53,069 nucleotides of DNA from a virus (lineage: Duplodnaviria; Caudoviricetes). A model generated the notes under the pieces. The model was not told the DNA's origin, made no database searches, and saw only the letters and a program-made list of their open reading frames with translations. Location of the stretch: positions 1 to 53,069 of IMG/VR virus record IMGVR_UViG_3300024051_000004; one strand, 5' to 3'. Shown here piece after piece: positions 20,837 through 45,377 of the stretch. Every line of letters begins with the position of its first letter. Within the stretch, counting starts at the first letter, position 1. A program made the translations under genes and the position numbers.

Positions 20837-22366
20837 TCAGTAGCCGCCGGCCCAGTCGTGCGGGTCGTCGTCGATGAGGTCGTCCCCGACGATGAGGTCG
20901 TCGTCAGGCAGGGGGTTCAGCAGGATCCGGTTCAGGGCTTGCGACATGGCGTCGATCGTGTCGTCGTGGGCGCCGTTCGGGAACGACTTCGCTTCCTCGA
21001 TGAGTTCTTCGACGTTCGGCAGGAGGTCCGCGGTCGGCAGGTGCACGTTCCCGGAGTGTGTGAACGGGGACACGGCGGCGGCGCGCGCGAACTTCGACCC
21101 TTCGGGTTCGACGGGGATCAGGCCGGGGATCTGCCGGGCGAGCGCGTTGATGACGGCGGGCCCGTTCGCCTTGTCCTCGACGAACTTCGCGGCAGCTTGC
21201 GGCCACCTTGCGGTCAGGGCCCGGATCGCATCCAACGTGGCGGTGAACGACAGGCGGGCGCGAACCTGGTCGACCAGGTACGCGTCGACCCCGAACCTCG
21301 CCCACACCTGACCGACGACGTAATCGGACGACTTCGTGTCCTTGAACGTCAGGTCCCACGACTGCACGAGCTCGAAGTCATGCCCGGGGAGGGTGCGGGT
21401 CCCGTCCGGGTGCTGCACCCACAGGGGTTGTTCGTACCGGGTCCACGTGTCGGGGAACAGGCCCCCGGACTCGGGTGACGGGTGGCCTTGGTACAGGGCG
21501 TTCCACACGCGGGGCCCGACTTCACGGCGGGTCTGTTCCCACTGTGCGGCGGTGCGTTGCTCCCCGGTGCGTTCGTCGCGGCGGGCGGAGTCCATCCACT
21601 GGCCGGGTTCGCGGCCGAGCGGGTCGACCTCGCCACGGTCGGGGCGGTGGTCCGCTTGGGCGGGGATGTTGATGACCCGCCACCGGTGCCCTTCTTCGGA
21701 GGCGAGTAGCCGCCCAGCAAGGTCGTCGTGATGCCACCGGGTCAGGATCACGATGACGGGGGCGCCGGGGGCGAGGCGGGTGCGGGCGACGGACGTCCAG
21801 AACGACCATGCACGGTCCCGGTACGTCTGCGACTCAGCCTGCTCCATGTTCGAGATCGGGTCGTCGATGAACATGACGTCCGCGGGGCGACCGGTGAGAC
21901 CACCGGCGATACCGACGGATCGGACCCCACCGATCCCGATGTCGCGTCGCAGCTTCCATGACGTGACCGCACCGTTGTCCTCTGCGATGCGCAGACCGAG
22001 GTCGAGGGTGCCGTCCTGCCCGGAGTTCGCTGTGATGTACCCGCGGATGTCGCGGCCGAACTCCATGGCGAGGGACTCGGCGTAGGACGCGACGACGACG
22101 CGACGGTTCGGGTTCCGCAGGAGGAACCACAGGGGCCCGGTCTTCGTGACCCGGGTGGACTTTCCTTCCTGTGGCGGCATGGAGATGATCAGCCGGTCAC
22201 AGTCCCCGTTGTCGACGTCGACGAGGGCTTGGTCGATGACGTCGAGTGCGGCGGTCTGGATCGTGCCGGGTTCGATGGCCTTCGCGAGGACCCCGGGTGT
22301 GGGCCATGGGTCGCGTCTCGGTTCGAACGCTCGGGCGACGTGTTCCAACCAGGGTTCGACGGTCAT
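20837..22366 (-). CDS. terL: Terminase large subunit
   Basis: Walker A MPPQEGKS, Walker B FIDDP, TRWHHDDLAG, nuclease SWD...FPNGAHDDTIDA. Confidence 0.95.
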   Translation of the reverse strand: MTVEPWLEHVARAFEPRRDPWPTPGVLAKAIEPGTIQTAALDVIDQALVDVDNGDCDRLIISMPPQEGKSTRVTKTGPLWFLLRNPNRRVVVASYAESLAMEFGRDIRGYITANSGQDGTLDLGLRIAEDNGAVTSWKLRRDIGIGGVRSVGIAGGLTGRPADVMFIDDPISNMEQAESQTYRDRAWSFWTSVARTRLAPGAPVIVILTRWHHDDLAGRLLASEEGHRWRVINIPAQADHRPDRGEVDPLGREPGQWMDSARRDERTGEQRTAAQWEQTRREVGPRVWNALYQGHPSPESGGLFPDTWTRYEQPLWVQHPDGTRTLPGHDFELVQSWDLTFKDTKSSDYVVGQVWARFGVDAYLVDQVRARLSFTATLDAIRALTARWPQAAAKFVEDKANGPAVINALARQIPGLIPVEPEGSKFARAAAVSPFTHSGNVHLPTADLLPNVEELIEEAKSFPNGAHDDTIDAMSQALNRILLNPLPDDDLIVGDDLIDDDPHDWAGGY

Positions 22367-22388
22367 CCGTCTCACCCCGCTCGTAGGG

Positions 22389-22628
22389 TCAGCCGGTGGG
22401 TCCGGTTCGGGCGGGGAGGGGTGCACCGCACGGGCAGCGTTTCGCCCATCCGGGGATGGGGTTGCGGCATGCGGGGCAGCGGATCCGGTCGCACCGGTGG
22501 CAGGTGTGGATGATGACGGGTGCCGTGGTGTGGGTGGTGAGGAGGGCTTGCCGGTCGCAGTCTTGCCCGCAGAGCCCGCATGGGGTGCGGTCCTCGTAGA
22601 CACGCTCGGGCAGGGGTGGGGTGCGCAT
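22389..22628 (-). CDS. Small multi-CxxC zinc-finger protein
   Basis: 79 aa with CGLC, CHRC, CPAC, CPC. Confidence 0.6.
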   Translation of the reverse strand: MRTPPLPERVYEDRTPCGLCGQDCDRQALLTTHTTAPVIIHTCHRCDRIRCPACRNPIPGWAKRCPCGAPLPARTGPTG

Positions 22629-22728
22629 GGTGCGGTCACCCCGCTTCACGGTGGTCCCGTCGTGTGTGCGGCTCGCAGGCCAGCGGTGGTGGTGTTGGCG
22701 CCTGGTCCAGGCACGCCACGACGGGGGT

Positions 22729-22881
22729 TCAGGGGGTCCGCAGCATGTGGTCCATGACGGTGAGGTCACGGCCGTTGATGTGCACAACCCATGCGGCGAG
22801 CCGCGGATGGTGGTGGAGGATCACACCGGTTCCGCGGTGACCGCGGACACGGACGGTGTCTCCAGGGCGGAGGGTGACCAT
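22729..22881 (-). CDS. 50-aa KOW/SH3-like small protein (below ORF-track cutoff)
   Basis: GGAGGTG RBS; MVTLRPGDTVRVRGHRGTGVILHHHPRLAAWVVHINGRDLTVMDHMLRTP. Confidence 0.6.
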   Translation of the reverse strand: MVTLRPGDTVRVRGHRGTGVILHHHPRLAAWVVHINGRDLTVMDHMLRTP

Positions 22882-22982
22882 GAGGGTGCACCTCCCGGTT
22901 GGGTGGTGTGGGCCTGGGAGCTTGGCTCGACCGGGGCCCGTTTCAGGGCGTGCGTGTAACCGGGAAGCGTGACACTGCGTCT

Positions 22983-23049
22983 AGTGTGCCATGTGGGGGC
23001 GGGGTGCCGCACGTACTCCAACACCGGTGTTGCAGTACGTGTTGCAGTA
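22983..23049 (-). promoter_or_regulatory. Candidate late promoter with upstream tandem repeats
   Basis: TGGCACACT extended -10-like (minus strand 22991-22983); GTGTTGCAGTA at 23027 and 23039. Confidence 0.45.
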
Positions 23050-23060
23050 GACCGGTGGTG

Positions 23061-23423
23061 TCACAGCGGGGCCGTCTGCAGATCCTCGTCGTAGTCGCGG
23101 TGGCCGGCATACGGCAGGGCGAGGGCGCGCAGGGTCGCCTCCGCTGCGCTGTGGGGCCAGATCGGGCCGCTCGATGCGTACGTCGGCACCTTCGTCTGGT
23201 CGAATGCGTCCGCGAGGAGGATGTCGGACTGGCGGAAGACGACCACCCAGTGCGGGCGGCACTGCTCCACGATCCGCCGCTTCGCCTCGCACTCGGCCAG
23301 GACGCGAGACGGTGCGAGCCACCCCGCCGTCTCCCCGACGTTCTCCTCGTACTCCACGTTCTCCCGCGCCGCCGCCTCGTCCTCCGCGATCCGCGCGAGC
23401 AGGAACTCCACCAGGTCGCTCAC
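23061..23423 (-). CDS. DUF6221-like protein
   Basis: LVEFLLARIAEDE...RVLAECEAKRRIV...LRALALPYAGHRDY signature. Confidence 0.8.
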   Translation of the reverse strand: MSDLVEFLLARIAEDEAAARENVEYEENVGETAGWLAPSRVLAECEAKRRIVEQCRPHWVVVFRQSDILLADAFDQTKVPTYASSGPIWPHSAAEATLRALALPYAGHRDYDEDLQTAPL

Positions 23424-23541
23424 CGTGTCCCCTCCGTCCGGTCCTCACAGTCCGCCGCCAACGACGGGACCGCATGCGCCACCCCATGACACCGGCAATG
23501 CCACGGATCCACACCATGCCCCACCCGAGGCGGGTCGCTAC

Positions 23542-24537
23542 TCACGCCCCACGCCCGACACGGTCCGCGATGTCCCCCAACCGGAACAAGTCCCGACCAC
23601 GCGCATCCTGCCCCCGCACCACCAACACCCCCCGATGCACCCACTGCCGCAACGTCGCCGCCTGCACCCCCCGCGGTTTGAACACCCGCCGCGCGTCCTC
23701 CAACGTGACAAGCTCGTCCGGGTGCGTCACCGGCAACGCCTGATGCGCCTCCAGGATCGCCAACATGAACCGGCCCTCCGACTCCCATGTGATCCCGCAC
23801 CGGTCGCACCGGTGGGTGTCCGTCAACCCCCGGTCAGTCCACTGCCGGTGCACGGTCCCCCCGTCGTACGGGCAGGGGACAGCAGCACGGACGGGCCCTT
23901 GGGCGGCACCCGTGAGGGTCCGCAGGCGTGCCCGCAGCACAGCCAGGTCGGTCAGGAAGTCACCCCACGTGGCGGAGTGCTGTGCAGCCCACTGGACGTG
24001 CACCACCAGGTAGGTGGTGGCGGCATCCACACCGGTGACCGTCGCCGCATGCTGATGCTGCTCCTGCCGCCACGCGTCCTCCCAGAACGTGAGGACCGCA
24101 AGGATGGACGGCGGGTCACGGCGTTCCGCATCGAGGAGCGCCGGGTCGATCGTCGTCTCCCGGCGACCAAGCCTGGTCTTGTCCGCGGTCCCCCCCGCAG
24201 CCATCACGAACGCGTCACCCCCGACGATCTGCGTGTCGTCACCACGAGTGCCGCCAGTGCGGTCGTAGCGGATGGCGTGCAGGCCCGCAGCCGCGGCGAT
24301 CACGTCGGGGAGCTGCCGGTACAGGTCCCGCACCCCACGCAGGTCGTTGCGGGCCCGGGACACGCACGGTTCGCAGGTGCGGCCGACGGTCTCGAGCACC
24401 CGCCCGCATGGTTCGGTGCCGCCGCCGCGGCGCACCGGTGACTGGCATGCGGTGGCGGTCGCGGGGCATTCCGGGGTGTCGCACGTGTACGTCACGTAAT
24501 CGTCGGTCACCCACTGGTGACGGTGCAGGGTCGTCAT
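23542..24537 (-). CDS. Zn-binding + C-terminal HTH regulator (putative late activator)
   Basis: Several Cys pairs (CEPC, CDRC); LVTLEDA...VQAATLRQWVHRG...LFRLGDI MerR/Xis-type HTH; position before packaging genes. Confidence 0.7.
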   Translation of the reverse strand: MTTLHRHQWVTDDYVTYTCDTPECPATATACQSPVRRGGGTEPCGRVLETVGRTCEPCVSRARNDLRGVRDLYRQLPDVIAAAAGLHAIRYDRTGGTRGDDTQIVGGDAFVMAAGGTADKTRLGRRETTIDPALLDAERRDPPSILAVLTFWEDAWRQEQHQHAATVTGVDAATTYLVVHVQWAAQHSATWGDFLTDLAVLRARLRTLTGAAQGPVRAAVPCPYDGGTVHRQWTDRGLTDTHRCDRCGITWESEGRFMLAILEAHQALPVTHPDELVTLEDARRVFKPRGVQAATLRQWVHRGVLVVRGQDARGRDLFRLGDIADRVGRGA

Positions 24538-25316
24538 GGGCGGACCTCTCCGTGTGGGCGGTGCGACGTCAGCGACGGGAAGTAGTGGTCCTCCCACCCG
24601 TCCATGTCCTGCCCGTACACCACAGACCGGGCGGGTGCCTTCGACCGCAGCGGATGCACCCGCAACCACCGGTGGTCCATGACCCCGCCGTACGTTGCGG
24701 CGTATGCGGGGTGCACTGGCAGGTCGTGTGCATGCAGGTACGCGAACACCTGCACCGCGGACCATCGGCCGATCGGCCGGCATGTGCGTGCCGTCGTGGT
24801 CCCACGGTGGCCGATGCTCATGGCACGGACTCGTGACTCCTCGCCGCGGACCCCGGAGATGTACGGGCTGGTGATGTTCTCAGCGAGGACGTCCTGCGAC
24901 CGGTACCCGGGCTGGTCGAACTGTGCCGGGTCGTACCCGGGGTCCCCCCGCTTCGGGTTCCGTGCGACCGCGGGTCGTTCCTCGTACACGACACCGGGGT
25001 GTGCGGCGAGGAACGCGTCCCGCACGTCGTACGTCGCGGCCGCCTCGTAGCTGGTCCCGTCGCTGCGGATCGTGGGCACCCACACGATCGGGGTGGACGG
25101 GTTCGCGAGCCATGTCAGGTGGGCGACGACGACGGAGTCCTTCCCCCATGACGTCGAGCACACCGCGTCAGGGTGAGCCGCCACGAACGTGCGGATCTCC
25201 GCGACGGCACGGTCGGCGACCCCGTGCACGGACGCCCCCATGCGCCGGTGATACCGGGCGGCGTCTCCCCATGCGGCCAAGTCCTGGTCGGTCAGGGTCG
25301 GCATGTCGATCAGCAC
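24534..25316 (-). CDS. cysH: CysH-like PAPS reductase family protein (type IV-B associated)
   Basis: PP-loop STSWGKDS, ISGVRGEES..R, CRPIGRWS..QVFAYL..HDLPVHPAY. Confidence 0.85.
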   Translation of the reverse strand: MLIDMPTLTDQDLAAWGDAARYHRRMGASVHGVADRAVAEIRTFVAAHPDAVCSTSWGKDSVVVAHLTWLANPSTPIVWVPTIRSDGTSYEAAATYDVRDAFLAAHPGVVYEERPAVARNPKRGDPGYDPAQFDQPGYRSQDVLAENITSPYISGVRGEESRVRAMSIGHRGTTTARTCRPIGRWSAVQVFAYLHAHDLPVHPAYAATYGGVMDHRWLRVHPLRSKAPARSVVYGQDMDGWEDHYFPSLTSHRPHGEVRP

Positions 25317-26224
25317 CCCTGGGCCTCCTGTGCGGCACGCCGCCGGTCGCCCTTGACGAACGTCAGGACGTACTGGTGTCGGCGGGTCGTGGTGCGGCAC
25401 GCCTCCCACGGAGGTCGGGTCGTCTTCGCACGCAACCCGGCCGGTTCGACGAGGACCTGTTCGTTCACGAGTCGCGCCCCGGCCGTCTCGAACGCCTCGA
25501 TAGCGTGGTGCGGCAGGTGCCGCAGGTGTCCGTGGTGGTCCCGCACGTCAGAGATCACCCATGTGGCGAACCGGTCGGGTCGAAGGCATCGGACCGCCTC
25601 ACGGATGATCGCGGCGTGCACGGTCAGGAACCCGGGCCATGTCATCGCGGACAGGTCCCGCGGGTCGTCGGAGTACCGTTCCCGGTTCCAGTACGGCGGG
25701 CAGGACAGCACGTAGTCGACGCTGCCGTCCGGGATGGTGTCGAGCTCGGTCGCCGCGTCCCCGTTGACCCACCGTGGCGGGCGCGGCAGGTCCCATCGGG
25801 TCGCGACGGCATCGTTCGCGGCGACCTGCGTGGGGGACAGTTCGATACCGGTGTACGCCCGGCCCAGGGCGGCGGCGACGATCCCCCGTACCGGGCCACC
25901 GGCGAGGGGATCGAGAACCGCCCCCGCGGGCGGGCAGAACCAGGTGTAGGCGAGCTCAGCGAGGACAGGGTCGAACCGGGACACGCCGCCACTGGTGCGA
26001 CCGTGCCGACCGGTCGCGATCATCGCACCACGGCCCGCACGCGGGGTGAGGTCATCGACACCCTGCTCGTCCCACCATCCCTTGCGGGCCCGCCACGCCG
26101 GGGTCGACTGGTCCAGGACGGACCACGGCCAGATGCCGTGCACGTCCAACGGCGCGTACACCGACGGGTCGTCGGGGTGCCACACCCCACGCCCGTCACG
26201 GGTGCCGTGGGCGATGGTGGTCAT
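25310..26224 (-). CDS. SAM-dependent amino (m6A/m4C) DNA methyltransferase
   Basis: SRFDPVLAE, motif I VLDPLAGGPVRG, YTGIEL, motif IV SCPPY, ERYSDDPRDLS. Confidence 0.85.
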   Translation of the reverse strand: MTTIAHGTRDGRGVWHPDDPSVYAPLDVHGIWPWSVLDQSTPAWRARKGWWDEQGVDDLTPRAGRGAMIATGRHGRTSGGVSRFDPVLAELAYTWFCPPAGAVLDPLAGGPVRGIVAAALGRAYTGIELSPTQVAANDAVATRWDLPRPPRWVNGDAATELDTIPDGSVDYVLSCPPYWNRERYSDDPRDLSAMTWPGFLTVHAAIIREAVRCLRPDRFATWVISDVRDHHGHLRHLPHHAIEAFETAGARLVNEQVLVEPAGLRAKTTRPPWEACRTTTRRHQYVLTFVKGDRRRAAQEAQGC

Positions 26225-26844
26225 GCGGGGACCGTGACCTTCCGGGACGGGTGCCAGTACGGGGCCCGGAACGCACCCGTGGCCCCGGGGGTCGGCATGG
26301 GGCGGTCACGCCACCCGTCGGGGTTCGGGTCGTCCTGCACCACCCACCGGGTGACGTGCCCGTGCCCGATGTTCGCGTGCTTCCCGACGTGCGTGACGAC
26401 CGACAGGAGCGTCTCCAGTCGGGTCCGGTCCGTCGCGAGGACATGCCACGTCATGGTGTCGACGAGGACCGCGGCGACGGTCGTGTCCCGCGCCTTGTAC
26501 GGGCCGAGACCCGTGTGGTGGCGTCGGTCCTGCGTGAACCGGGCCATCGGGCCCGTCGCGGGCTTGCGACGCAACTCGACCGCCGTCCACGACCGCACGT
26601 GCACGGCCGCCTGGGATGTGCACCACCCCCACGTGCCGTGCGCCTCCCACCGCACCAACGGCAGGTCCATGTCCATGACCAGGTCCCGTGTCATCGACGG
26701 CAGTCCCGACCCGTCGCGTTGCGCCAGGGCCGCGGCCGCCCACGACAGGGGCGCGTCCAGCATGACCGGCACCTCGACGACCCCGACCGCGGGCGTGTCG
26801 AGGTGCGCGGTCACGACCAGCGGTGTGCCCAGTGGTGCGCCCAT
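26221..26844 (-). CDS. csf3: Type IV Cas5-group RAMP (Csf3)
   Basis: LVVTAHL, LDAPL, LPL, GPYK, G-rich loop VGKHANIGHGHV, C-terminal RAPYWHP. Confidence 0.85.
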   Translation of the reverse strand: MGAPLGTPLVVTAHLDTPAVGVVEVPVMLDAPLSWAAAALAQRDGSGLPSMTRDLVMDMDLPLVRWEAHGTWGWCTSQAAVHVRSWTAVELRRKPATGPMARFTQDRRHHTGLGPYKARDTTVAAVLVDTMTWHVLATDRTRLETLLSVVTHVGKHANIGHGHVTRWVVQDDPNPDGWRDRPMPTPGATGAFRAPYWHPSRKVTVPA

Positions 26845-26847
26845 CGG

Positions 26848-27726
26848 TCAGGCCGCGAGGTCAGCCAGGAGCGTCAGGATCGCGTCCCGCTCGTGCGCGA
26901 TGTGCCCCGTCCACTCGACGAGCTGGTCGTTCACGGTCGCCCAGTCCACCCCGGTGACCGTCGCCGCCCCGTACCCGAGGGCGGACTTCGCGCCGAGCCG
27001 CACGATCCCGTCCGGCGCCCACAGGGCGAGCGCGGCACCGAGCGCGACCCGGTGCCCTTCGGTCGCGGCCGGCGTCAGGCTGACCGTGCCGTACAGGACC
27101 GTACCCGCCTTCAGCGCCTGCACGTCGTAGATCATCTGCGTGCCGGTGACCTGCTGGGCTGCGTCGACGAACCGGGCGACGGGGGTCGACGTGATGTCGT
27201 GTCGGGTGCCGAACTCCTCCGTCCGGTACGCGGCGACACCCTGCTGTGCGTGCGGCAGGGCCTGCAGGTCCGCGGGTAGCCGCCACGCGTTCTCCCGGGC
27301 GACGACCTCCAGGTCCGACACCCGCAGGGTTCCGGCGACGATGTCGGACTTCGCGGCGTACCCGAGGAGGCCGAGCGCGGGGAACACGTCGTCGACCCGT
27401 CGGGCGATGTCCAGGTCGACCTGTGCGCCCGTGGCGGTGACGGCGCCACCGGACCACAGCAGGTCGACGACGCCCTTTGCGAGGGACCCGTCGGGGATGT
27501 TCAGCTCGCGGGCGGCGTGCCAGGCGAGCGCGTCCCGCAGGCCGTGCCGCACGGAGTTCGCGGAGACGAACGGGACACGGGTGTGCGTGCCGTCGGGCAG
27601 GGTGATCTCGTGGGTGCGCAGCAGGGCCGTGTTCCCGGACGTGCCGGCCCCGTGGTGCAGGGGTGCGGTGAGGGTGATCGTGAGGGTCGTGGTGTCCACG
27701 GTCGGGGTGATGGTCGTGGTGGTCAT
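26848..27726 (-). CDS. csf2: Type IV Cas7-group backbone (Csf2)
   Basis: TAPLHHG, VPFVSANSVRHGLR, LWSGG, PALGLLG, GTLRV, TRHD, QMIY, LGAKSALGYG. Confidence 0.9.
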   Translation of the reverse strand: MTTTTITPTVDTTTLTITLTAPLHHGAGTSGNTALLRTHEITLPDGTHTRVPFVSANSVRHGLRDALAWHAARELNIPDGSLAKGVVDLLWSGGAVTATGAQVDLDIARRVDDVFPALGLLGYAAKSDIVAGTLRVSDLEVVARENAWRLPADLQALPHAQQGVAAYRTEEFGTRHDITSTPVARFVDAAQQVTGTQMIYDVQALKAGTVLYGTVSLTPAATEGHRVALGAALALWAPDGIVRLGAKSALGYGAATVTGVDWATVNDQLVEWTGHIAHERDAILTLLADLAA

Positions 27727-28106
27727 CAGAACGTCGCCTCCGGGGTCGTCGTGGTGGTGGTCTTGCGGGTCTGCCGTTCGACGTCCGCGAGGGCGACGAT
27801 GTACACGATGTTCCGGTCGACGTGCGCCGCCCACGCCTGGTAGTCGCGGTCGATGACCGCGGCGACAGCCTTCACGGTCGCCGCGTGCCGGGTCGTGATC
27901 TGCGGGATCTGCAGTTTGCGGGCTGCGGTCGTGATCGCCGCGGCCGCGGTGTCCGCACCGGCGGCGGCGGTCGTCAGGGCGGTGGCGGCGCGGCCCCCGG
28001 TCCAGAACTCGAGCCGGGACGGGCCGTCGTCGGTGAGGGAGTCACGCAGTGCGAAGATCAGGTCGATCGTCGCCCGGTCGTACTCCTCGGTGGTGGGTGT
28101 GGTCAC
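27726..28106 (-). CDS. cas11: Type IV-B small subunit (Cas11-like)
   Basis: 126 aa all-helical protein between csf1 and csf2, overlapping both. Confidence 0.65.
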   Translation of the reverse strand: MTTPTTEEYDRATIDLIFALRDSLTDDGPSRLEFWTGGRAATALTTAAAGADTAAAAITTAARKLQIPQITTRHAATVKAVAAVIDRDYQAWAAHVDRNIVYIVALADVERQTRKTTTTTTPEATF

Positions 28107-28837
28107 TGCAGGTGTCCCTTCGTGATGGTCCACAGCGCGAGGCTGAGGAGCGGGGATCCGAGCCACGCGGTGAGCTCGGCGTTGTGCGTCGACCACTGGT
28201 GCAGGTCGTCGCGGGTCTTCAGGTAGCGGGGGGTGCCGTGCATGACGTCGTCGGCGGGGATGCCGAGGCGTCGCAGGGCGGTCGCGTGGGTGTGGACGTG
28301 CGCCCATTCGTCGGGGGTGGCGGTGACGGTGGTGGTCTCCATGCGGACTACCCACCGGCCGGGTCCGTCGTTGAGGTGCCCGTACGGCAGGACATGCTTC
28401 TGCCCGGACGTTGCGATGGTCACGGTCCACGGCCCGTCGGGTGGGGTGGTGAGGGTGTGCGCGACGAGCGTGCCGGTGTCGTCGCCGCGGGCGCCGAGGT
28501 ACAGGCCGGGCCGGTCCTGCAGGAACGCCTTGGGGTTCGACGCGGGTACCGACCGGTCGGGGGTTGCGACGATCGACCACATGCGCAGGGTCGCGGGGGG
28601 CTTCCCAGAGCAGCACCACAGGCATGCGGGGCACACCCGGTCGGACGACGGGTCACGGAACAGGGACCGGTCGGTGAAGTTCGCGCCCAACGCCCTGTTG
28701 ACGTCTGCGGTGCGGGGGACGGTGCGGGTGCAGATCGCACACACCCCGGCATAGTCCTTGACGAGTGCGGCGATGGTGGGGATCGGATCGGGTTCCCCGG
28801 CGAGATGCCACACGGTCACGGTGGGGGCGGTGCTCAT
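28103..28837 (-). CDS. csf1: Type IV large subunit (Csf1/Cas8-like)
   Basis: CAIC...NFTD...VCPAC Zn finger, PP..PW, SGQKHVLP. Confidence 0.8.
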   Translation of the reverse strand: MSTAPTVTVWHLAGEPDPIPTIAALVKDYAGVCAICTRTVPRTADVNRALGANFTDRSLFRDPSSDRVCPACLWCCSGKPPATLRMWSIVATPDRSVPASNPKAFLQDRPGLYLGARGDDTGTLVAHTLTTPPDGPWTVTIATSGQKHVLPYGHLNDGPGRWVVRMETTTVTATPDEWAHVHTHATALRRLGIPADDVMHGTPRYLKTRDDLHQWSTHNAELTAWLGSPLLSLALWTITKGHLQ

Positions 28838-29415
28838 GATGCGGCCCCGACGAGGAGGAGGCCGGCCCCGTACGCCTTCGCTGGGCCGACGCCGTCGCGG
28901 ATGAGACGTTCGAGGGTGTCGGGGTTGGTGACGGTGCCGGTGGCGTAGAACGCGCTGAGCCGGTGGGTGACGGTGGCTTCGTGTCGTGCACCGGTGCGGG
29001 TGCCGAGGGGTTGCACGGCGACGTCGTGGAGGGTGACGGCCCCGTCGAGCTTGCGTCGCAACCAGTCGGCGTGCTGGTCGATCGGCAGGGGGATGCGTCG
29101 ACCACGGACCCCGCGGGGGGTGGGGGTGAGGGTGACGGGGTTGCCGATGAGGGAAATGCGTACGGGGGTCCCGGACGCCCATCGGGGGCGGGCGGGACCG
29201 GAGTGGGATTCGACGACTCCGCCGATCGCAGCCGCCCGGATGGGTGCCCCGGCTTGCACGATGACGATGTCTCGGGTGGGGTTCGCCCACAGGACCCGGC
29301 CGGGGTTGTCGACGTCGAGCGCGTGCAGGATCGTGCGGTGCAGGGTTTGCGTGTCGCGGGGTGCGCTGTGGTGCGCGAACCGTAGTTCGGTCAGGTGCAG
29401 GGTGGGTTGGGTCAT
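28834..29415 (-). CDS. cas6e: Cas6e (Cse3/CasE-like) crRNA-processing RAMP
   Basis: LHRTI, RVLW, VIVQ, L.GNPV, RRIPL, WL.RK, G-rich loop GVGPAKAYGAGLL. Confidence 0.85.
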   Translation of the reverse strand: MTQPTLHLTELRFAHHSAPRDTQTLHRTILHALDVDNPGRVLWANPTRDIVIVQAGAPIRAAAIGGVVESHSGPARPRWASGTPVRISLIGNPVTLTPTPRGVRGRRIPLPIDQHADWLRRKLDGAVTLHDVAVQPLGTRTGARHEATVTHRLSAFYATGTVTNPDTLERLIRDGVGPAKAYGAGLLLVGAAS

Positions 29416-29741
29416 GCGTCGCCTCGCAGTGGGGTGAACGTGTACCGGAACGCGGTGATGTCGTCACGCCACCCGCAGTGTTCGCATTCCGTCCCGATGT
29501 TCGGGTCGTCGAACGACCGGTCGACCCGGTACCCGTCGCATGCGGTGAACCGGTCGGTGCTGCCGCAGCGGGGGCAGGTGGCGGCGACCCACCATGCGGC
29601 GGGCCCGGTGTCGGGGTGTCCGAGGTATGTGCGCCCGCCGTCGGTGAACTCGTCGATGCCGTGGCCTTCGTCTTCGCAGGGCAGGGCGGGGGTGAAGTCG
29701 AGGTCGGTGAGGACGTCCGGCAGGGTGATCGGGGCGGTCAC
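29412..29741 (-). CDS. Zn-finger hypothetical protein coupled to cas6e
   Basis: CPRC and CEHC motifs; ATGA overlap with cas6e. Confidence 0.6.
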   Translation of the reverse strand: MTAPITLPDVLTDLDFTPALPCEDEGHGIDEFTDGGRTYLGHPDTGPAAWWVAATCPRCGSTDRFTACDGYRVDRSFDDPNIGTECEHCGWRDDITAFRYTFTPLRGDA

Positions 29742-29938
29742 TGTCCACGCACCTCCGTCGTCGTGGTCGTCGTGGTGGTGATCGGGTCGGAGCCGTCTCC
29801 GGCGAAGCCCCACCCGAGGGCCGTGGTGGGGGACCGGTGCCCGTAGTGCTGGTTCCGCCACGCCCGCAGGACTCTGGTCGCGGTGGCGTCGTCCGTGATG
29901 ACGAGCGTCGCCCCGCACGGGCAGGTTTCGCGGATCAC
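29738..29938 (-). CDS. Small hypothetical (CPCG...W...H)
   Basis: GTGA overlaps on both sides. Confidence 0.5.
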   Translation of the reverse strand: MIRETCPCGATLVITDDATATRVLRAWRNQHYGHRSPTTALGWGFAGDGSDPITTTTTTTTEVRGQ

Positions 29939-30060
29939 TGCTCGTCCTCCGTCCATTCGATGTTGACCCGGTCGGTCCAGGTCATGGTGTTGTGCTCGAG
30001 GCGGGCGAGGAGCAGGGCCCGCTGGTCGCCGGTCGGGTCGTTGACGGGGCGGGTGCTCAC
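29935..30060 (-). CDS. Small hypothetical
   Basis: 41 aa, coupled overlaps. Confidence 0.45.
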   Translation of the reverse strand: MSTRPVNDPTGDQRALLLARLEHNTMTWTDRVNIEWTEDEQ

Positions 30061-30197
30061 GGGATTCCCCGGCGGGCGGGGGTGACGTCGATGGCCTCGT
30101 GTGCACCGTCGGGGCCGATCCCGACGGGCACACCGGTGCCGTTGTCGACGATGAAGTCGATGTCCCCGGGGATGAGCCACACGCGTGTGACGGCCAT
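30057..30197 (-). CDS. Small hypothetical
   Basis: 46 aa, coupled overlaps. Confidence 0.45.
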   Translation of the reverse strand: MAVTRVWLIPGDIDFIVDNGTGVPVGIGPDGAHEAIDVTPARRGIP

Positions 30198-30409
30198 CAG
30201 AACGCCCGGGTCTTCCGGTTCCCCGCAAGGTCGATGATGTCGTTGCGGCCCTGCATGTCGTTCACGGCCTTGCACCGGTCGCACCGCCACCAGGTGCACT
30301 GGCCGGTGGCGCAGTGCGGGCGGGGGTGTGCGGGTCGGGGTGTGTTGCAGTTCGAGCAGAGCTTCCCGGCGCGCGGGTCGGCGGGCTTCTGCTGGGGTTC
30401 ACGGGTCAC
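30197..30409 (-). CDS. Small Zn-finger protein
   Basis: GGAGGTG RBS; CSNC, C..C, CDRC. Confidence 0.55.
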   Translation of the reverse strand: MTREPQQKPADPRAGKLCSNCNTPRPAHPRPHCATGQCTWWRCDRCKAVNDMQGRNDIIDLAGNRKTRAF

Positions 30410-30517
30410 GGGTCCGGCACCTCCATGCGGGCCCGGCATACGCGAACCCGTGACCCACGTCATATGTCGTCCCGTGTCTGGCATGCCAAGAGACACGCCG
30501 GGCACAGCCATGCCCGG

Positions 30518-31168
30518 TCACTGTGTGGCGAGGGCCCGCACTTCCCTCGGTACGACGTCCGCGACGGCCGCATCCCACGCGTCCTGCAGCACGGCATCGT
30601 CGAACCCGGCGGTGATGAGCGCCCGGTACAGGCCGTCCAACACGCGCCGGATCAGTTCGATCACAATGTTCCCCTGTGATTCCGCGAGACGCACCTTGCG
30701 TTCTTCCACCCCAGCACGCAACGCCGCCGCGGACACTTTCACCAGGTGGTCACGTTCCCTGGCGTACAACTCGTACCACACTGATGGCGCGGACCCATCC
30801 GTGGTTTCCACGCCGGCACCAGCCCTGTCGACTTTCTTCGTGGCACCCCACACAAGGGACTCAGGTTCCAGCTCCTGCACTTTCCCCCGCAACCACGCCA
30901 CATGCCCGGCAGTCCACTGCACTTCCTGCAACAGGGCATCCGTCGGGGAAACATCTACAGGCAAACCAAGGACACGAACCGCCTCAGCAGCCTTCACCTC
31001 CACCGCACGCCGTTCCTGCGCGGCCTTCACCTGCGGTGCCCGACCACCATGCGCCGTACACACCTGACCCGGCTTGCACGGCTTCCGGCACGGCTGCCCC
31101 TTCCGCTCCCCAGACGAAATGTGTCCCGTGCAACCCGGGTGCTCCTGCCCGCACTTCCCGCACGTCAC
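30518..31168 (-). CDS. Terminase small subunit-like protein (CxxHGG family)
   Basis: GQPCRK...VCTAHGGRAPQVKAA...PTDALL.EVQWTAGHVAWL...LY..ERDHL..AGVEER.VRLAE, like proteins found before terL in actinobacterial prophages. Confidence 0.6.
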   Translation of the reverse strand: MTCGKCGQEHPGCTGHISSGERKGQPCRKPCKPGQVCTAHGGRAPQVKAAQERRAVEVKAAEAVRVLGLPVDVSPTDALLQEVQWTAGHVAWLRGKVQELEPESLVWGATKKVDRAGAGVETTDGSAPSVWYELYARERDHLVKVSAAALRAGVEERKVRLAESQGNIVIELIRRVLDGLYRALITAGFDDAVLQDAWDAAVADVVPREVRALATQ

Positions 31169-31223
31169 CGGGCACCCCCGTTCGATGGGTCGTGCGACAC
31201 GGGCGCATTCGATGGGTCGCTCA

Positions 31224-31481
31224 TCACGCCTCCTTCCACTCGGTGACCTGGCGGGAGACGACGACGCCGTCCCGCGTGTGCATGTTGGCGGCGAACCATC
31301 GCGCGGACCCCTCACCCGCGTTCGGCTCGATCACGGTCGTCCACGGCCAGCGGACGCCCCACTCGGTCGTCGTCTCGTCCGTGCATGCACCGCGCAGGGC
31401 ACCGTCTGCGGTGCGGCGCTCCGGGCATGCGAGGCCGGGGCCGTCCTCGGTGCCGTGGTTGTGCACGACCTCGCCGCTCAC
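31224..31481 (-). CDS. Hypothetical protein
   Basis: GTGA-coupled; EWGVRW...VVSRQVTEW. Confidence 0.5.
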   Translation of the reverse strand: MSGEVVHNHGTEDGPGLACPERRTADGALRGACTDETTTEWGVRWPWTTVIEPNAGEGSARWFAANMHTRDGVVVSRQVTEWKEA

Positions 31482-31873
31482 GGCAGCACCACATCGCGCA
31501 CGTCGGTGATGTCCTCGGCGCTGTGCCAGCGGCGGTAGTCGACCTCGCACACCGTGAGGTAGGGCATGCCGCGCCCACGCACCGCCATGATCACCACCTG
31601 ATCCGGCACGCCGCGCACCGTCGCCCGGAAGCGCGTACCCGGCTCGGTCGGGACGGCTGTCGGAGCAGGCTTGTGCGCGCGGACGCGGATCAGGTCCGCC
31701 CGGACCGCGCCAGCCGCGTAGGCAATCGCATACTCGTCGACGCACAGCGCGTCCCGCTCCTGCACCACCTCGCGCCAGCCCTTGACCGGCAGCCACTCCA
31801 TGTCCGGGCTCACCCGGATGTCGATCTTCACCAGGTCGCCGGGCTGGATCTTGCTCAGGTCGATGTCGGTCAT
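31478..31873 (-). CDS. Hypothetical protein
   Basis: GGAGG RBS; IDLSKIQPGDLV, VPTEPG. Confidence 0.6.
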   Translation of the reverse strand: MTDIDLSKIQPGDLVKIDIRVSPDMEWLPVKGWREVVQERDALCVDEYAIAYAAGAVRADLIRVRAHKPAPTAVPTEPGTRFRATVRGVPDQVVIMAVRGRGMPYLTVCEVDYRRWHSAEDITDVRDVVLP

Positions 31874-31893
31874 CGTTCCTCCATTCGGTTCGG

Positions 31894-33219
31894 TCAACGG
31901 TCATGCCATGACGGTTCACGGTCCTGCACCGGAACAGGCGCAGGACGCCACTGGCGGGGCGTCATCTCTGAGAACGCACCACCACGAGTGAGTTCCACCA
32001 CCCCGCACTGTCCCTGCCGGTTCTTCGCTACGAGCATGTCCAACGCTGTCTCGTCGTCGTCATGCTCGTGCAACAGCAACACAACGTCACTGTCCTGTTC
32101 CACAGCTCCCGACTCGCGAAGGTCAGCCATTGATGGTCGCTTGTCCTGCCGCTGCTCGGGTCCACGGTTCAACTGTGACAACGCAATCACCGGGACCTGC
32201 AATTCCTTCGCGAGGAGCTTCAGCCCGCGTGAAAACTCCCCAACGACCTCTGCACGATTCCGCTTTTCCATGCCACGCGGGGCTGTCATCAACTGCAAAT
32301 AGTCGACGACGATGCCAGCCAACGGGCGCCGGTGCGCGACCGTCCGCGCGAACGCCCGGATCCCTGCCGGGGTCAACGACGACCGGTCGTCGATCGCGAT
32401 CGGCAACGATGCGAGCTCGGCCCGGTGTCGGGCGATCCGCGCCCAGTCCTCGTCGGTCAGGTCGTGTGCGTCGATCCGGTTCCCGGGAACCCGGGCGAGG
32501 TGCGCGAGGATCCGCTGCTCGACCTCGACCCGCGGCATCTCCAACGATGCGATCACCACAGCCCCGTGCTGTGCCAGGTGCACCGCGGCCTGCACCCCGA
32601 CGATCGACTTCCCGACCGCAGGTCGTGCCCCCACCACGTACAGGGCGCCGGGACGCCACACCCGGATCAGTCGGTTCAGGTCCGGCCACGGTGTCGGGTA
32701 CCCGGTCGGTTCCGTCTCGAGCGCTTCGAGGGTCGTGTCGATCGTGTCCCCGATGAACCCTGTCGACACGGCTGCGGTGCCGGTTGCGACCGCATCGACC
32801 TCCGCCCGGCACGTCTCGACGAGTGCTGTCACGTCCCCCTCGCCGGCTTGTGCGAGTTGGGTGATGCGGGTCCCGGCGGCGGCGAGACGCCGCAGCACGG
32901 CCTGTTCGTGCACGATTCGTGCGTAGAACTGGGCGTTGGTGGTGGTGACGACACCGTTGATGAGCTGGTGCAGGTACGGCAGCCCGCCGATGGTTGCGAG
33001 TTCCCCGGTGCGGGTCAGGTGGTTCCCGACGGTGATCGCGTCGACGGCGTCCCCGGTGCGGTGCAGCTGCAGGATCGCCGCCCAGATGATCGTGTGCTTC
33101 GGTGCGTACAGGTCGTCGGGGGTGATGACGTCTGCGACGTCGTCGATGCCGGTGGGGCGCAGGAGGCACGCACCGAGCATCTGCGTCTCGGCTTCCCGGT
33201 GGTCGATGATCGCGTTCAC
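31894..33219 (-). CDS. dnaB: Replicative DNA helicase
   Basis: GARPAVGKS, SLEM, VVDYLQLM, LSQLNR, DLRESGAVEQDSD, AKNRQG. Confidence 0.95.
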   Translation of the reverse strand: MNAIIDHREAETQMLGACLLRPTGIDDVADVITPDDLYAPKHTIIWAAILQLHRTGDAVDAITVGNHLTRTGELATIGGLPYLHQLINGVVTTTNAQFYARIVHEQAVLRRLAAAGTRITQLAQAGEGDVTALVETCRAEVDAVATGTAAVSTGFIGDTIDTTLEALETEPTGYPTPWPDLNRLIRVWRPGALYVVGARPAVGKSIVGVQAAVHLAQHGAVVIASLEMPRVEVEQRILAHLARVPGNRIDAHDLTDEDWARIARHRAELASLPIAIDDRSSLTPAGIRAFARTVAHRRPLAGIVVDYLQLMTAPRGMEKRNRAEVVGEFSRGLKLLAKELQVPVIALSQLNRGPEQRQDKRPSMADLRESGAVEQDSDVVLLLHEHDDDETALDMLVAKNRQGQCGVVELTRGGAFSEMTPRQWRPAPVPVQDREPSWHDR

Positions 33220-34037
33220 TGGCCGTCACCACCGCCACGGCGGGGTGCGTACCGGTCCCACGGTGACGTGGTCGGTGCGGTGGCGGGCGCCCCGGTGCGG
33301 GGGTCCGTGCGGGGCGGCAACGGTTCGTCGTCCCACCGGCCTGCGTTCAACCATGTGGCGGGGTGCGGGATGAACTCCTTGGCGGGCAGGTTCGGGTCTG
33401 CGGCGAACCGGTGGGCGCCTGCCGTGATCGTGTCGTGCCCGACCCTGCGGGCCGCCTTGTCGAACGCACGCCGGGCGGCGTCCTTCCCGACCTTCCGCGG
33501 GTACGCCGACCAGAACGTGTCGAACGCACCCGTGGGCACACGGACCGTCGCCGGCGCAGCCGGTGACGAAGAGTCTTTCTCCTCTGTTCCTCTGTTCCCC
33601 TGTTCCCCTGTTCCATGCCGGAGGGTTCCGGGAGGGTTCCGGGAGGGTTCCGGGAGTGGCGCGCCGATGATGGAGTCCCGAAAGTTCATTGTGCCGTCTG
33701 GCCTGGGGAAACGTCCGCGGGTCGGCTTCTCGATGCGTTGGATCGACTCCCAGAACGCGATGTACAGGAGTCGGTTCCCGTCGGCCTCGTATCGCCACAG
33801 GAGACCAGCGTCGGAGAGCGCGTTGAGGGCTTCCGCAACCTTCCGGAGGGTTCCGGGAGGGTTCCGGGAAAGGTCCCGGGGGAACACGTCTGCGACGATG
33901 AGCGGCAGGTCGTCCTTCCCGACCCCGTTGTCGTCGACGAACGACTCGAGGCCCTTCAGGACGAGCCGCGCGTCCCAGTCGACGGACGCGACACGGGCGG
34001 ACCGCCAGAACTCTGGCTTGGTGCTGCGGATGCGCAT
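33216..34037 (-). CDS. Phage replication initiator
   Basis: MRIRSTKPEFW...DDNG N-terminus; FDTFWSAYPRKVGK...HPATWLNAGRWDDE C-terminus; coupled to dnaB. Confidence 0.85.
   Translation of the reverse strand: MRIRSTKPEFWRSARVASVDWDARLVLKGLESFVDDNGVGKDDLPLIVADVFPRDLSRNPPGTLRKVAEALNALSDAGLLWRYEADGNRLLYIAFWESIQRIEKPTRGRFPRPDGTMNFRDSIIGAPLPEPSRNPPGTLRHGTGEQGNRGTEEKDSSSPAAPATVRVPTGAFDTFWSAYPRKVGKDAARRAFDKAARRVGHDTITAGAHRFAADPNLPAKEFIPHPATWLNAGRWDDEPLPPRTDPRTGAPATAPTTSPWDRYAPRRGGGDGQ
33584..33866. repeat. Iteron-like repeats inside initiator gene (putative origin)
   Basis: GGAGGGTTCCG x3 at 33620-33652 and x2 at 33845-33866; CTGTTCC x4 with 8-nt period at 33584-33614. Confidence 0.7.
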
Positions 34038-34327
34038 CAGGATCGCCCACCGGCCCGATCGTGCAGGTCGAGGCATGCGGTGAGCTCGTCGATGACCTGG
34101 CGTGCGTTGCGGGCGGCCTGGTCGGCGGCGTGCAGGGCTGTCTCGATGCGGACCCGCCCAACCGTGTCGGACCGGTACAGGGGGGTGGCGAGCGACCCGA
34201 GCGCCGTCAGGGTTGCCGCGCATGCGTTGCGTGCCGCCGCCCAGTGGGTCTGGAACTCACGGTTCGCGACGTCGAACGGGACGACGACGGGTGTCGGGGG
34301 TGGGTCGGGGACGACATGCAGGGTCAT
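34037..34327 (-). CDS. Hypothetical protein
   Basis: Coupled overlaps with neighbours. Confidence 0.5.
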   Translation of the reverse strand: MTLHVVPDPPPTPVVVPFDVANREFQTHWAAARNACAATLTALGSLATPLYRSDTVGRVRIETALHAADQAARNARQVIDELTACLDLHDRAGGRS

Positions 34328-45114: not shown

Positions 45115-45149
45115 CGCACTGCCTTCCTCGTCCGTGGTGTTGATGCTGG

Positions 45150-45377
45150 TCATGCCGGTTCGCCCGTCTCGTCGACACCCCAGTCGACGTGCATGTCCCG
45201 GTCGTTCACCGTCAGGTGTTCGAGCGTGTCCGCGGCCCGGTCGGCTTCTGCAGCGGTGACCCGCATCCCGGCCGCTGCGGCCTCGCGGGCTTCGTGACGG
45301 AGCATCGCGACGAGGACCAGCCGCGCATGCGTGAGCGTCACCATGACGGGCGCGATGGTGGTGTCGGCGGTGGTCAT
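45150..45377 (-). CDS. Hypothetical protein
   Basis: GGAGG RBS, ATGA overlap. Confidence 0.55.
   Translation of the reverse strand: MTTADTTIAPVMVTLTHARLVLVAMLRHEAREAAAAGMRVTAAEADRAADTLEHLTVNDRDMHVDWGVDETGEPA

Follow-up and report, generated by a model that had tools for sequence, protein, structure and literature searches.

Type IV-B is the one CRISPR-Cas subtype that papers dated December 2024 and September 2026 still describe as being of unknown function, and workers in the field have singled out CysH as the key to it. The window analyzed here, a virus record of 53 kb (the whole stretch of 53,069 nucleotides; record completeness approximately 75%), contains a DNA methyltransferase (MTase) gene lodged between csf3 and the CysH-like gene of such a system. 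The locus raises the question of whether the MTase takes part in what type IV-B does or merely shares its position. A preliminary description had proposed that the MTase and the CysH-like protein are an effector arm that modifies DNA or RNA at sites selected by the Csf complex.

Organization of the operon

The window carries a single translationally coupled operon on the minus strand. The genes run from the cas6e-like gene through csf1, cas11, csf2, csf3, the PF01555 DNA amino-methyltransferase, and the CysH-like gene to one unknown gene, after which the terminase follows; the operon ends directly upstream of the packaging genes. The features were as follows.

28834..29415, minus strand: cas6e-like gene (CasE/Cse3 family), with which the recognizable cas genes of the operon begin; 66.3 bits for PF08798 (cut-off 25) and E 5e-6, short of the cut-off, for TIGR01907; kept upstream of csf1 in related loci
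28103..28837, minus strand: csf1, small Cas8-like subunit of type IV; E 2e-7 for TIGR03114, short of the curated cut-off; 42-61% in related loci (tblastn)
27726..28106, minus strand: cas11-like small subunit, 126 aa; so assigned from its place between csf1 and csf2, from its size, and from its conservation in related loci (31-72%, tblastn)
26848..27726, minus strand: csf2, Cas7 of type IV; PF03787 RAMPs at 27.8 bits (cut-off 22.1), TIGR03115 at E 1.4e-5, phrog_22746 at 2e-33
26221..26844, minus strand: csf3, Cas5 of type IV; TIGR03116 at E 1.1e-19, its 71 bits falling short of the equivalog cut-off (140)
25310..26224, minus strand: DNA amino-methyltransferase, PF01555 family, circularly permuted, 304 aa; PF01555 at 31.9 bits (cut-off 26.7), phrog_12517 at 3e-86, phrog_498 at 2e-54
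24534..25316, minus strand: CysH-like PP-loop protein (CasCysH), signature accessory gene of type IV-B; PF01507 at 40.3 bits (cut-off 22.5), SWGKDS motif, AF2 model
23542..24537, minus strand: 331-aa gene coupled to the cysH-like gene, with a C-terminal MerR-like HTH; ATGA overlap, phrog_1467 and phrog_2474, no Pfam match
20837..22639, minus strand: terminase large subunit; PF17289 and PF03237

The preliminary description had reported an SCPPY amino-MTase overlapping both csf3 and the start of the cysH-like gene, and both overlaps were found on the minus strand. The MTase ATG (26224-26222) overlapped the csf3 stop (26223-26221) as ATGA. The likely start of the cysH-like gene was GTG 25316, which overlapped the MTase stop (25312-25310) by 7 nt, was preceded by AGGAGG at 25328-25323, and gave the N-terminus (M)LIDMPTLT, like the MLID... 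of homologues; the alternative ATG at 25304 would not overlap the MTase. The cysH-like stop and the ATG of the next gene overlapped as ATGA at 24537-24534, and no terminator-like site was found on the operon strand from 29918 to 23542.

The type IV-B core genes csf1, csf2, and csf3 were all present, with csf2 scoring above the PF03787 gathering threshold. The only NCBIfam csf matches were TIGR03114, TIGR03115, and TIGR03116, all below the curated equivalog cut-offs, indicating that the Csf1, Csf2, and Csf3 proteins of the window are divergent members of their families; Csf2 was 25-30% identical to that of plasmid IV-B systems. The cas11-like ORF had no profile match, and its placement between csf1 and csf2 was conserved in related loci. 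Type IV-B typically has no Cas6 or other crRNA-processing enzyme; the Cas6e-like gene of the window is a variant trait in this respect. Passages of PMC7038947 report Cas6 in only 12 IV-B instances.

TRF, repeat search, Rfam, and a k-mer scan detected no CRISPR array in the 53-kb window; as the record is only approximately 75% complete, one could lie outside it. The k-mer scan flagged 11 of 112 sequences, mostly for short tandem coding repeats. The search for a repeat that the Cas6e-like protein might recognize also gave nothing credible, either with TRF, direct repeats, and Rfam at gathering thresholds or with Rfam at E<=1 on 22000-32000, where the sole match was Tymo_tRNA-like at E 0.56. These results bear on a fuller form of the model of the preliminary description, in which the Csf ribonucleoprotein, loaded with Cas6e-processed RNA, directs methylation or adenylylation by the MTase and the CysH-like protein to chosen DNA or RNA sites. 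We consider this model quite improbable. It is favored by the coupling of every gene in one operon and by the Cas6e-like gene, which was kept throughout the closest clade of loci and suggests that a defined RNA is loaded. In contrast, neither an array nor a repeat accompanies that enzyme in the window, and the published IV-B complex bound heterogeneous RNA (passages of PMC8175902).

The methyltransferase and the CysH-like protein

The window MTase had both traits of PF01555 membership, a SAM-binding motif I and a catalytic motif IV. Motif I (VLDPLAGGPVRG) reads DPLAGG and lies upstream of motif IV, LSCPPYW, an order that is permuted relative to the Pfam PF01555 model. Within motif IV, CPPY carries Cys in place of D/N/S; it did not vary among 15 of 15 related sequences, and in PDB 2zie its counterpart in the alignment is SPPY. 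No PF02195 match, and thus no ParB N-terminal domain, was detected in the 304-aa protein, and the phrog_498 match spanned only profile positions 355-606 of 633. The MTase is probably an autonomous DNA adenine enzyme. That it can work on its own is suggested by its family, in which 79 of 80 sampled viral loci had neither csf nor cysH genes in the surrounding 6 kb.

The CysH-like protein fits the adenine-nucleotide alpha-hydrolase (PP-loop) superfamily by both motif and Rossmann-like alpha/beta/alpha fold. SWGKDS occupies residues 56-61, and among 26 homologues S56, W57, G58, K59, and S61 were invariant and D60 nearly so. The AF2 model (pLDDT 91.8) matched PAPS/APS reductases, the FAD synthase PAPS domain, and TtuA in Foldseek with probability 1.00 and TM 0.35-0.48; sequence identity to the nearest folds, PAPS/APS reductases and other adenine-nucleotide alpha-hydrolases, was 13-20%. 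The relatives of the protein were found solely by profile-based scans, and tblastn of the window sequence against the phage and plasmid collections at 1e-5 gave no match.

Assimilatory PAPS/APS reductase (CysH proper) has a C-terminal catalytic cysteine motif of the ECGLH type. The preliminary description saw the PP-loop in the window protein and no such motif, an observation that held for the window protein, whose C-terminal part contains no Cys and no Cys motif, and extended to the 26 homologues, among which there was no invariant cysteine. Against NCBIfam equivalogs the protein scored 26-40 bits, with cut-offs of 154-254. The alignment also had no conserved cysteines of the DndC/TtuA type, which serve an Fe-S cluster or persulfide. 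A cysH-like gene without the catalytic cysteine is a published hallmark of type IV-B, as stated in passages of PMC8175902.

Distribution of the methyltransferase and co-divergence with CysH

Related loci were compared by a Pfam scan of same-strand ORFs of at least 140 aa, over a span that began 1.4 kb ahead of cysH and ended 2 kb past it. The closest clade, which is Cas6e-bearing, comprised 31 assessable unique loci, and a DNA MTase adjoined cysH in 20 of them. This count had been set beforehand as a check on the preliminary description, whose model would be weakened by absence of the MTase from most related loci; because 20 of 31 keep one, no such absence was seen in the closest clade. The 20 enzymes comprised 14 of the PF01555 type (8 between csf3 and cysH, 6 after cysH) and 6 of an unrelated Dam class with DPPY (D12/Dam-class; 5 between, 1 after), giving 13 between csf3 and cysH and 7 just after cysH. 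The remaining 11 loci had no MTase beside cysH. The post-cysH ORFs of L048, L053, and L054 had been candidates for Dam-class enzymes like that of L013 and were rejected: they share only the first 75 residues with the L013 protein and thereafter match the next gene of L013 instead. Among 59 more distant unique loci with a cysH-like gene, 6 had any methyltransferase match nearby, namely, 3 SpoU-type proteins and 3 PF01555 enzymes 0.6-1.6 kb away. The association between MTase and type IV-B is therefore facultative, being missing from 11 of the 31 clade loci and from most distant IV-B loci.

These gaps could also mean that the genes are co-located without functional coupling. An orphan anti-restriction MTase and the IV-B/cysH cassette would then have entered the same accessory slot upstream of the packaging genes, the csf3|cysH junction would simply be permissive, and co-divergence would reflect linkage. 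We regard this explanation as possible but rather doubtful. The census showed that tailed phages infecting Actinomycetota commonly carry IV-B with a Cas6 gene, in every case right ahead of the packaging genes. In line with co-location, several of the phages with these loci (L051, L049, L053, and L026) bore further MTases elsewhere. The csf3|cysH junction also accepts extra Cas6 genes (L006, L008, L018, L023, and L080), and L042 has one just after cysH. Insertions were confined to the csf3|cysH or the cysH|next-gene junction, with none among cas6e, csf1, cas11, csf2, and csf3. Against co-location, 13 loci had an insertion between csf3 and cysH, and in 11 of them it consisted of the MTase alone; of the two others, L006 also has an extra Cas6 and L037 has room for one more gene. 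That two unrelated MTase families fill the same position likewise speaks against co-location.

The MTase family is well represented in viral contigs, with at least 581 matching stretches, and both this abundance and its almost complete lack of Cas neighbors in the sampled loci fit simple co-location. Of 57 assessable MTase-family loci, 18 had TerL downstream and on the strand of the MTase, and none was found with TerL upstream, as judged with a limited query set; the characterized relatives are ParB-MTase fusions encoded directly before terminase genes. Because the family normally sits directly upstream of the terminase, a shared permissive slot is a real alternative. Against it, in a tree of 94 MTases, 13 of the 15 IV-B-linked PF01555 enzymes formed a single clade (SH-aLRT 97) rather than being random draws from a large phage family; the sole other member of this clade, L127, was near-identical to L008 and came from a 4.9-kb contig.

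Distances compared by Mantel test in 12 loci showed that the MTase tracks CysH (r 0.78; 0 of 2000 permutations as high), with r 0.07 against Csf2 and r 0.18 against Csf3, whereas Csf2 and Csf3 correlated with each other at r 0.88. In 27 loci, correlations within the Csf genes were r 0.62-0.80, and those of CysH with the Csf genes were r 0.25-0.37. The five Dam-class MTases between csf3 and cysH were 41-70% identical in pairs, equaling or exceeding the CysH identity of the corresponding pair of loci in 8 of 10 cases. Physical linkage alone can explain co-divergence of adjacent genes, yet the enzymes lying between csf3 and cysH adjoin csf3 too and do not follow it. On the CysH tree, the MTase state underwent no fewer than 13 changes, at least 6 of them gains or losses, and the sister loci L017 and L051 bear different MTase families. 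This turnover, which speaks for co-location, implies that the MTase is dispensable or replaceable.

The same data divide the claim of the preliminary description. The part that joined the MTase and the CysH-like protein in one arm is consistent with their behavior as one evolutionary unit, given the co-divergence and the retention in 20 of 31 loci, non-orthologous Dam-class enzymes included. The part in which the Csf complex selects the sites found no indication: the MTase family occurs without Csf or CysH in nearly all sampled phages, 11 of 31 clade loci and most distant loci have no MTase, and the enzyme does not co-diverge with Csf2 or Csf3. If the MTase docked specifically on Csf or CysH, its exchange for an unrelated Dam-class enzyme between sister loci would also be hard to explain. 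A point on the other side is the SpoU-type (RNA 2'-O) methylase that neighbors cysH in the distant viral IV-B loci L020, L083, and L069.

Proposed roles and comparison with known systems

Taken together, these results lead us to favor, with modest confidence, a reading in which the window holds a Csf module (Cas6e-like, Csf1, Cas11, Csf2, and Csf3) without an array and, in the same operon, an accessory pair of DNA amino-methyltransferase and CysH-like protein that co-evolve. The MTase would act alone on DNA at its own motif. Its product would most likely be N6-methyladenine, given that the enzymes which take its place in other loci are canonical Dam-class DPPY enzymes. It may thereby mark phage DNA epigenetically ahead of packaging, and in lysogens the host DNA as well; the methyl mark could either label self or be a partner modification. 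The CysH-like protein, which has the ATP-binding PP-loop but not the cysteines of sulfur chemistry, might use ATP to activate, by adenylylation or in another way, a nucleic acid or protein that is a substrate of the same pathway. The Csf ribonucleoprotein would be a separately evolving module. A bolder version, which we think unlikely, is that the MTase and CasCysH are the enzymatic output of phage IV-B, marking DNA before packaging through N6-methylation and PP-loop adenylylation or a follow-on modification, coupled somehow to the Csf-Cas6e ribonucleoprotein. If such a two-enzyme modification module were real, type IV-B would be an epigenetic rather than an interference system. An MTase that co-evolves with CysH, its IV-B-specific clade, and its in-situ replacement by adenine MTases offer a testable lead on IV-B function, and the MTase findings support an older speculation that IV-B has a role in epigenetic marking.

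The CysH-like gene without a catalytic cysteine was already known, and the MTase had only been hinted at in print. The Figure 4B legend of Shmakov et al. 2018 (bioRxiv 10.1101/270033) names "N6-MTase, N6 adenosine methylase" and "SSB" among the genes of IV-B/CysH loci, which were on plasmids or predicted prophages; the co-occurrence of an MTase with IV-B/CysH was thus seen before. In the available text of that paper, "methyltransferase" occurs 0 times and "methylase" once, in the legend only, and its passages hold no census, phylogeny, or co-divergence analysis of the methylase. Our literature search on a link between MTase and IV-B found no analysis beyond this legend; the supplements of PMC7038947 and of the 2018 paper may list such neighbors.

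The closest known systems are the type IV-B loci with CasCysH, for example those of the Mycobacterium sp. JS623 plasmid and Rhodococcus pBD2. As described in passages of PMC8175902 and PMC7038947, they share with the window csf1, cas11, csf2, csf3, and a cysteine-lacking CysH-like protein, as well as residence on a mobile element in an operon without array, nuclease, or helicase. Unlike them, the window system is located in a tailed-phage genome, adjoins the terminase, and has a Cas6e-like gene, cysH in the same operon, and a DNA MTase nested between csf3 and cysH. In pBD2 and an M. intracellulare plasmid, cysH is kilobases away on the other strand, and no annotated MTase was present near csf genes or cysH in the two Rhodococcus and Mycobacterium plasmid IV-B loci inspected. 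Fuxivirus, a Bathyarchaeia virus, also encodes IV-B with a CysH-like gene adjoining csf3; according to passages of PMC10848311, it has a mini-array and a stand-alone DNA MTase elsewhere (gene 47 versus genes 1-5), whereas the window has no array and carries the MTase within the operon.

DndC (Dnd) and BrxP (type 4 BREX) are likewise PAPS-reductase-family proteins recruited into mobile-element or defense loci, as noted in passages of PMC8175902 and PMC12839542, and the parallel suggests an analogy with epigenetic marking. Unlike them, the CysH-like family studied here has no conserved cysteine at all, and Pfam and NCBIfam profiles revealed neither a cysteine desulfurase nor any other Dnd or BREX gene in the operon. 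For both reasons, phosphorothioation chemistry is unlikely, as was already argued for the IV-B CysH-like protein in passages of PMC8175902.

For the MTase itself, the nearest counterparts are the phage ParB-methyltransferase fusions (phrog_498), such as Enterococcus phage phiFL3A gp36 and Mycobacterium phage AlanGrant gp1. Pairs of PAPS-reductase and ParB proteins carry the IbrA/IbrB label, and the literature search on such pairs found only unrelated papers. The fusions have the same MTase domain, with DPFAGGxVRG followed by (S/T)CPPY and 38-42% identity across approximately 90% of the window MTase, and they are likewise encoded directly upstream of packaging genes. In contrast to them, the window MTase stands without a ParB domain and belongs to a sub-clade almost confined to IV-B loci.

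The operon and its type IV-B setting

The window (53,069 bases, approximately 70% G+C, estimated to be 75% complete) carries a gapless succession of genes on its minus strand from 29918 to 23542, all called solely from ORFs and profiles.

Genes of the operon and the neighboring terminase gene
28834-29415, minus strand: Cas6e-like gene (PF08798, 66 bits)
28103-28837, minus strand: csf1
27726-28106, minus strand: cas11-like ORF, 126 aa
26848-27726, minus strand: csf2
26221-26844, minus strand: csf3
25310-26224, minus strand: DNA amino-methyltransferase (MTase), 304 aa, PF01555 at or above the Pfam gathering score
24534-25316, minus strand: CysH-like protein, 260 aa, PF01507 at or above the Pfam gathering score
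23542-24537, minus strand: 331-aa gene, no function assigned
20837-22639: terminase large subunit

The operon is flanked by terminase large subunit, portal, head, and DnaB helicase genes. The csf3 stop and the MTase ATG share an ATGA overlap. The GTG start of the CysH-like gene at 25316, located 6 nt downstream of AGGAGG and overlapping the MTase stop, yields the N-terminus MLID..., as in homologues, and its stop overlaps the ATG of the 331-aa gene. No CRISPR array was detected within the 53,069 bases of this approximately 75% complete record.

In the type IV-B descriptions of PMC8175902 and PMC7038947, such loci comprise csf1, cas11, csf2, and csf3 without an array, Cas6, or helicase, and their defining accessory gene is the cysH-like one. 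The word "methyltransferase" is absent from the text of these two type IV papers. Figure 4B in Shmakov et al. 2018 has 'N6-MTase' in its legend as one of the genes drawn in IV-B/CysH loci, undiscussed in the accompanying text. Statements on IV-B function in PMC11656645 (December 2024) and PMC13676074 (September 2026) still call it unclear.

PMC7038947 mentions Cas6 in only 12 IV-B instances. Here, the Cas6e-like gene (28834-29415, minus strand) heads an array-less IV-B operon and is kept across the whole clade sharing this architecture (L001-L054 and L105 among the related cysH-like loci), with tblastn matches in 27 loci or more. Cas6 genes of families PF09559, PF10040, and PF01881 occur in other viral IV-B loci.

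Elsewhere in the window, a 12-nt unit (CGCGCCGCCCAC) recurs approximately 54 times at 44212-44857 and encodes, on the minus strand, a long G-A-V-x four-residue repeat in a 686-aa ORF (43504-45564). Short tandem repeats at 33580-33656 and 33841-33869 (TCCCCTGT x4.4; GGAGGGTTCCG x3.4 and x2.7) fall in the minus-strand ORF 33216-34223, where they are translated as an SRNPPGTLR-like repeated peptide. The repeats at 33580-33869 may be replication-origin iterons inside an initiator gene.

Occurrence of MTase genes beside cysH

Profile scans with the CysH-like alignment matched at least 23 genome loci and at least 80 viral loci which, with the window and earlier loci, gave 92 unique loci among the matches listed. 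Their cas genes were mapped by tblastn. The Pfam scan took in all 437 ORFs on the cysH strand that reached 140 aa and lay in an interval starting 1.4 kb before cysH and ending 2 kb after it; local HMMs for both MTase families were run on both strands. The clade with the window's architecture comprised 33 unique loci (two truncated, 31 assessable), and a DNA MTase adjoined cysH in 20 of the 31.

MTase genes adjoining cysH in the clade
PF01555-type, between csf3 and cysH: 8 (window, L031, L006, L011, L017, L033, L036, L037)
PF01555-type, just after cysH: 6 (L012, L015, L016, L035, L007, L008; one gene between in L008)
D12/Dam-class (PF02086, DPPY), between csf3 and cysH: 5 (L005, L014, L026, L039, L051)
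D12/Dam-class, after cysH: 1 (L013)

Insertions among the Csf genes themselves were found in none of the mapped related loci. No MTase stood beside cysH in 11 of the 31 (L032, L040-L043, L048-L050, L053, L054, L105), which favors the main rival explanation, that the genes simply share a pre-terminase accessory slot. This slot is the usual home of the MTase family: with a limited query set, 18 of 57 assessable loci had a terminase large subunit gene downstream of the MTase. We regard this explanation as possible, if somewhat doubtful.

Extra Cas6 genes (PF01881) in clade loci L006:4028-5062, L008:38-625, and L042:2997-4124 sit at the MTase's junction, csf3/cysH or post-cysH, and in L040 cysH is followed by an AAA_33 kinase.

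Only six of the 59 other unique loci had a methyltransferase match in the scanned interval: PF01555, 0.6-1.6 kb away, in L060, L067, and L101, and SpoU-type methylases adjoining cysH in distant, partly archaeal-virus-like loci (L020:8589-9014, L083:8502-9014, L069:9717-10508). The L069 methylase carries a fused domain of the tyrosine-phosphatase family; at L066:8462-9004 a phosphatase alone neighbors cysH. No MTase is annotated in the plasmid IV-B loci of Rhodococcus pBD2 and M. intracellulare, where cysH lies kilobases off on the opposite strand. A second, longer PAPS_reduct+DUF3440 protein stands beside the cysH-like gene in the distant viral loci L085, L087, L091, L092, L093, and L096, two of which (L085 and L096) encode a ParB_N protein close by as well. 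On the haloarchaeal plasmid L030, cysH is followed downstream by genes for a ParB_N protein and for a second member of the PAPS-reductase family. In L002/L073, a viral IV-B locus of 52% G+C with sugar epimerase and C-methyltransferase genes at its flanks, 16-mers repeated five times at approximately 67-nt spacing (L073:13241-13526), about 3.5 kb downstream of cysH, are possibly a CRISPR mini-array.

Turnover and co-divergence of MTase and CysH

On the CysH tree of the clade, a five-state MTase label underwent at least 13 changes, at least six of which were gains or losses, and the sister loci L017 and L051 differ in MTase family. Turnover this fast speaks against the MTase being an obligatory, docked subunit. 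Among 94 family MTases placed in a tree, 13 of 15 IV-B-linked enzymes, from both positions, formed one well-supported clade, whose sole further member was a near-copy of the L008 enzyme on a short contig; L016 (long branch) and a non-adjacent upstream copy in L051 fell outside. The family spans at least 581 viral stretches, and neither csf nor cysH was present within 6 kb in 79 of 80 sampled loci.

Pairwise identities across 12 loci correlated at r 0.78 for MTase versus CysH (none of 2000 permutations was that high), 0.07 for MTase versus Csf2, 0.18 for MTase versus Csf3, and 0.88 for Csf2 versus Csf3; adjacency by itself can yield correlation, and related loci are not independent. Over 27 loci, Csf and Cas6e-like genes correlated at 0.62-0.80, and CysH with them at 0.25-0.37. 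The Dam-class enzymes between csf3 and cysH share 41-70% mutual identity, at least equal to CysH identity in 8 of 10 locus pairs. These patterns point to a locus of two modules, Csf on one side and MTase plus CysH on the other, with recombination between them at the csf3 boundary.

The preliminary description had proposed that MTase and CysH modify sites chosen by the Csf complex. This proposal is weakened by the family's independence of Cas genes, the in situ swapping of unrelated enzymes, and the missing co-divergence with Csf genes, and appears improbable. We lean towards a IV-B variant, carried by phages and equipped with Cas6e, in which the MTase and the CysH-like protein form an accessory module and evolve together. 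The MTase is predicted to act on DNA by itself, with adenine as the probable target because Dam-class enzymes replace it.

The CysH-like protein and the MTase

The SCPPY of the MTase and the SWGKDS of the CysH-like protein, both noted earlier, are present, and the latter indeed lacks the C-terminal cysteine motif. That CasCysH has no catalytic cysteine was already stated in PMC8175902, whose argument is that phosphorothioation is therefore unlikely. Among 26 homologues, PP-loop residues S56, W57, G58, K59, and S61 are invariant and D60 nearly so, the fold-typical SG(V)R(A)EES and RP..W motifs are likewise invariant or nearly so, and no cysteine is invariant. Structural matches of the AlphaFold model (pLDDT 91.8), at TM-scores of 0.33-0.48 and 11-20% identity, were PAPS/APS reductases, the PAPS domain of FAD synthase, TtuA, and NAD synthetases. 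Conservation and model together indicate a generic adenine-nucleotide alpha-hydrolase lacking sulfur-chemistry residues; the protein classified neither as CysH proper nor as a DndC-like enzyme.

In the MTase, motif I (DPLAGGPVRG) precedes motif IV. Compared with PF01555 and with 2zie, a relative of solved structure, this order is permuted; the SPPY of 2zie aligns to the CPPY of the window MTase. All 15 related sequences keep the CPPY cysteine, and the phage ParB-MTase fusions AlanGrant gp1 and phiFL3A gp36 share it. These fusions, 38-42% identical to the window MTase, are encoded immediately before terminase genes and, unlike it, carry a ParB domain.
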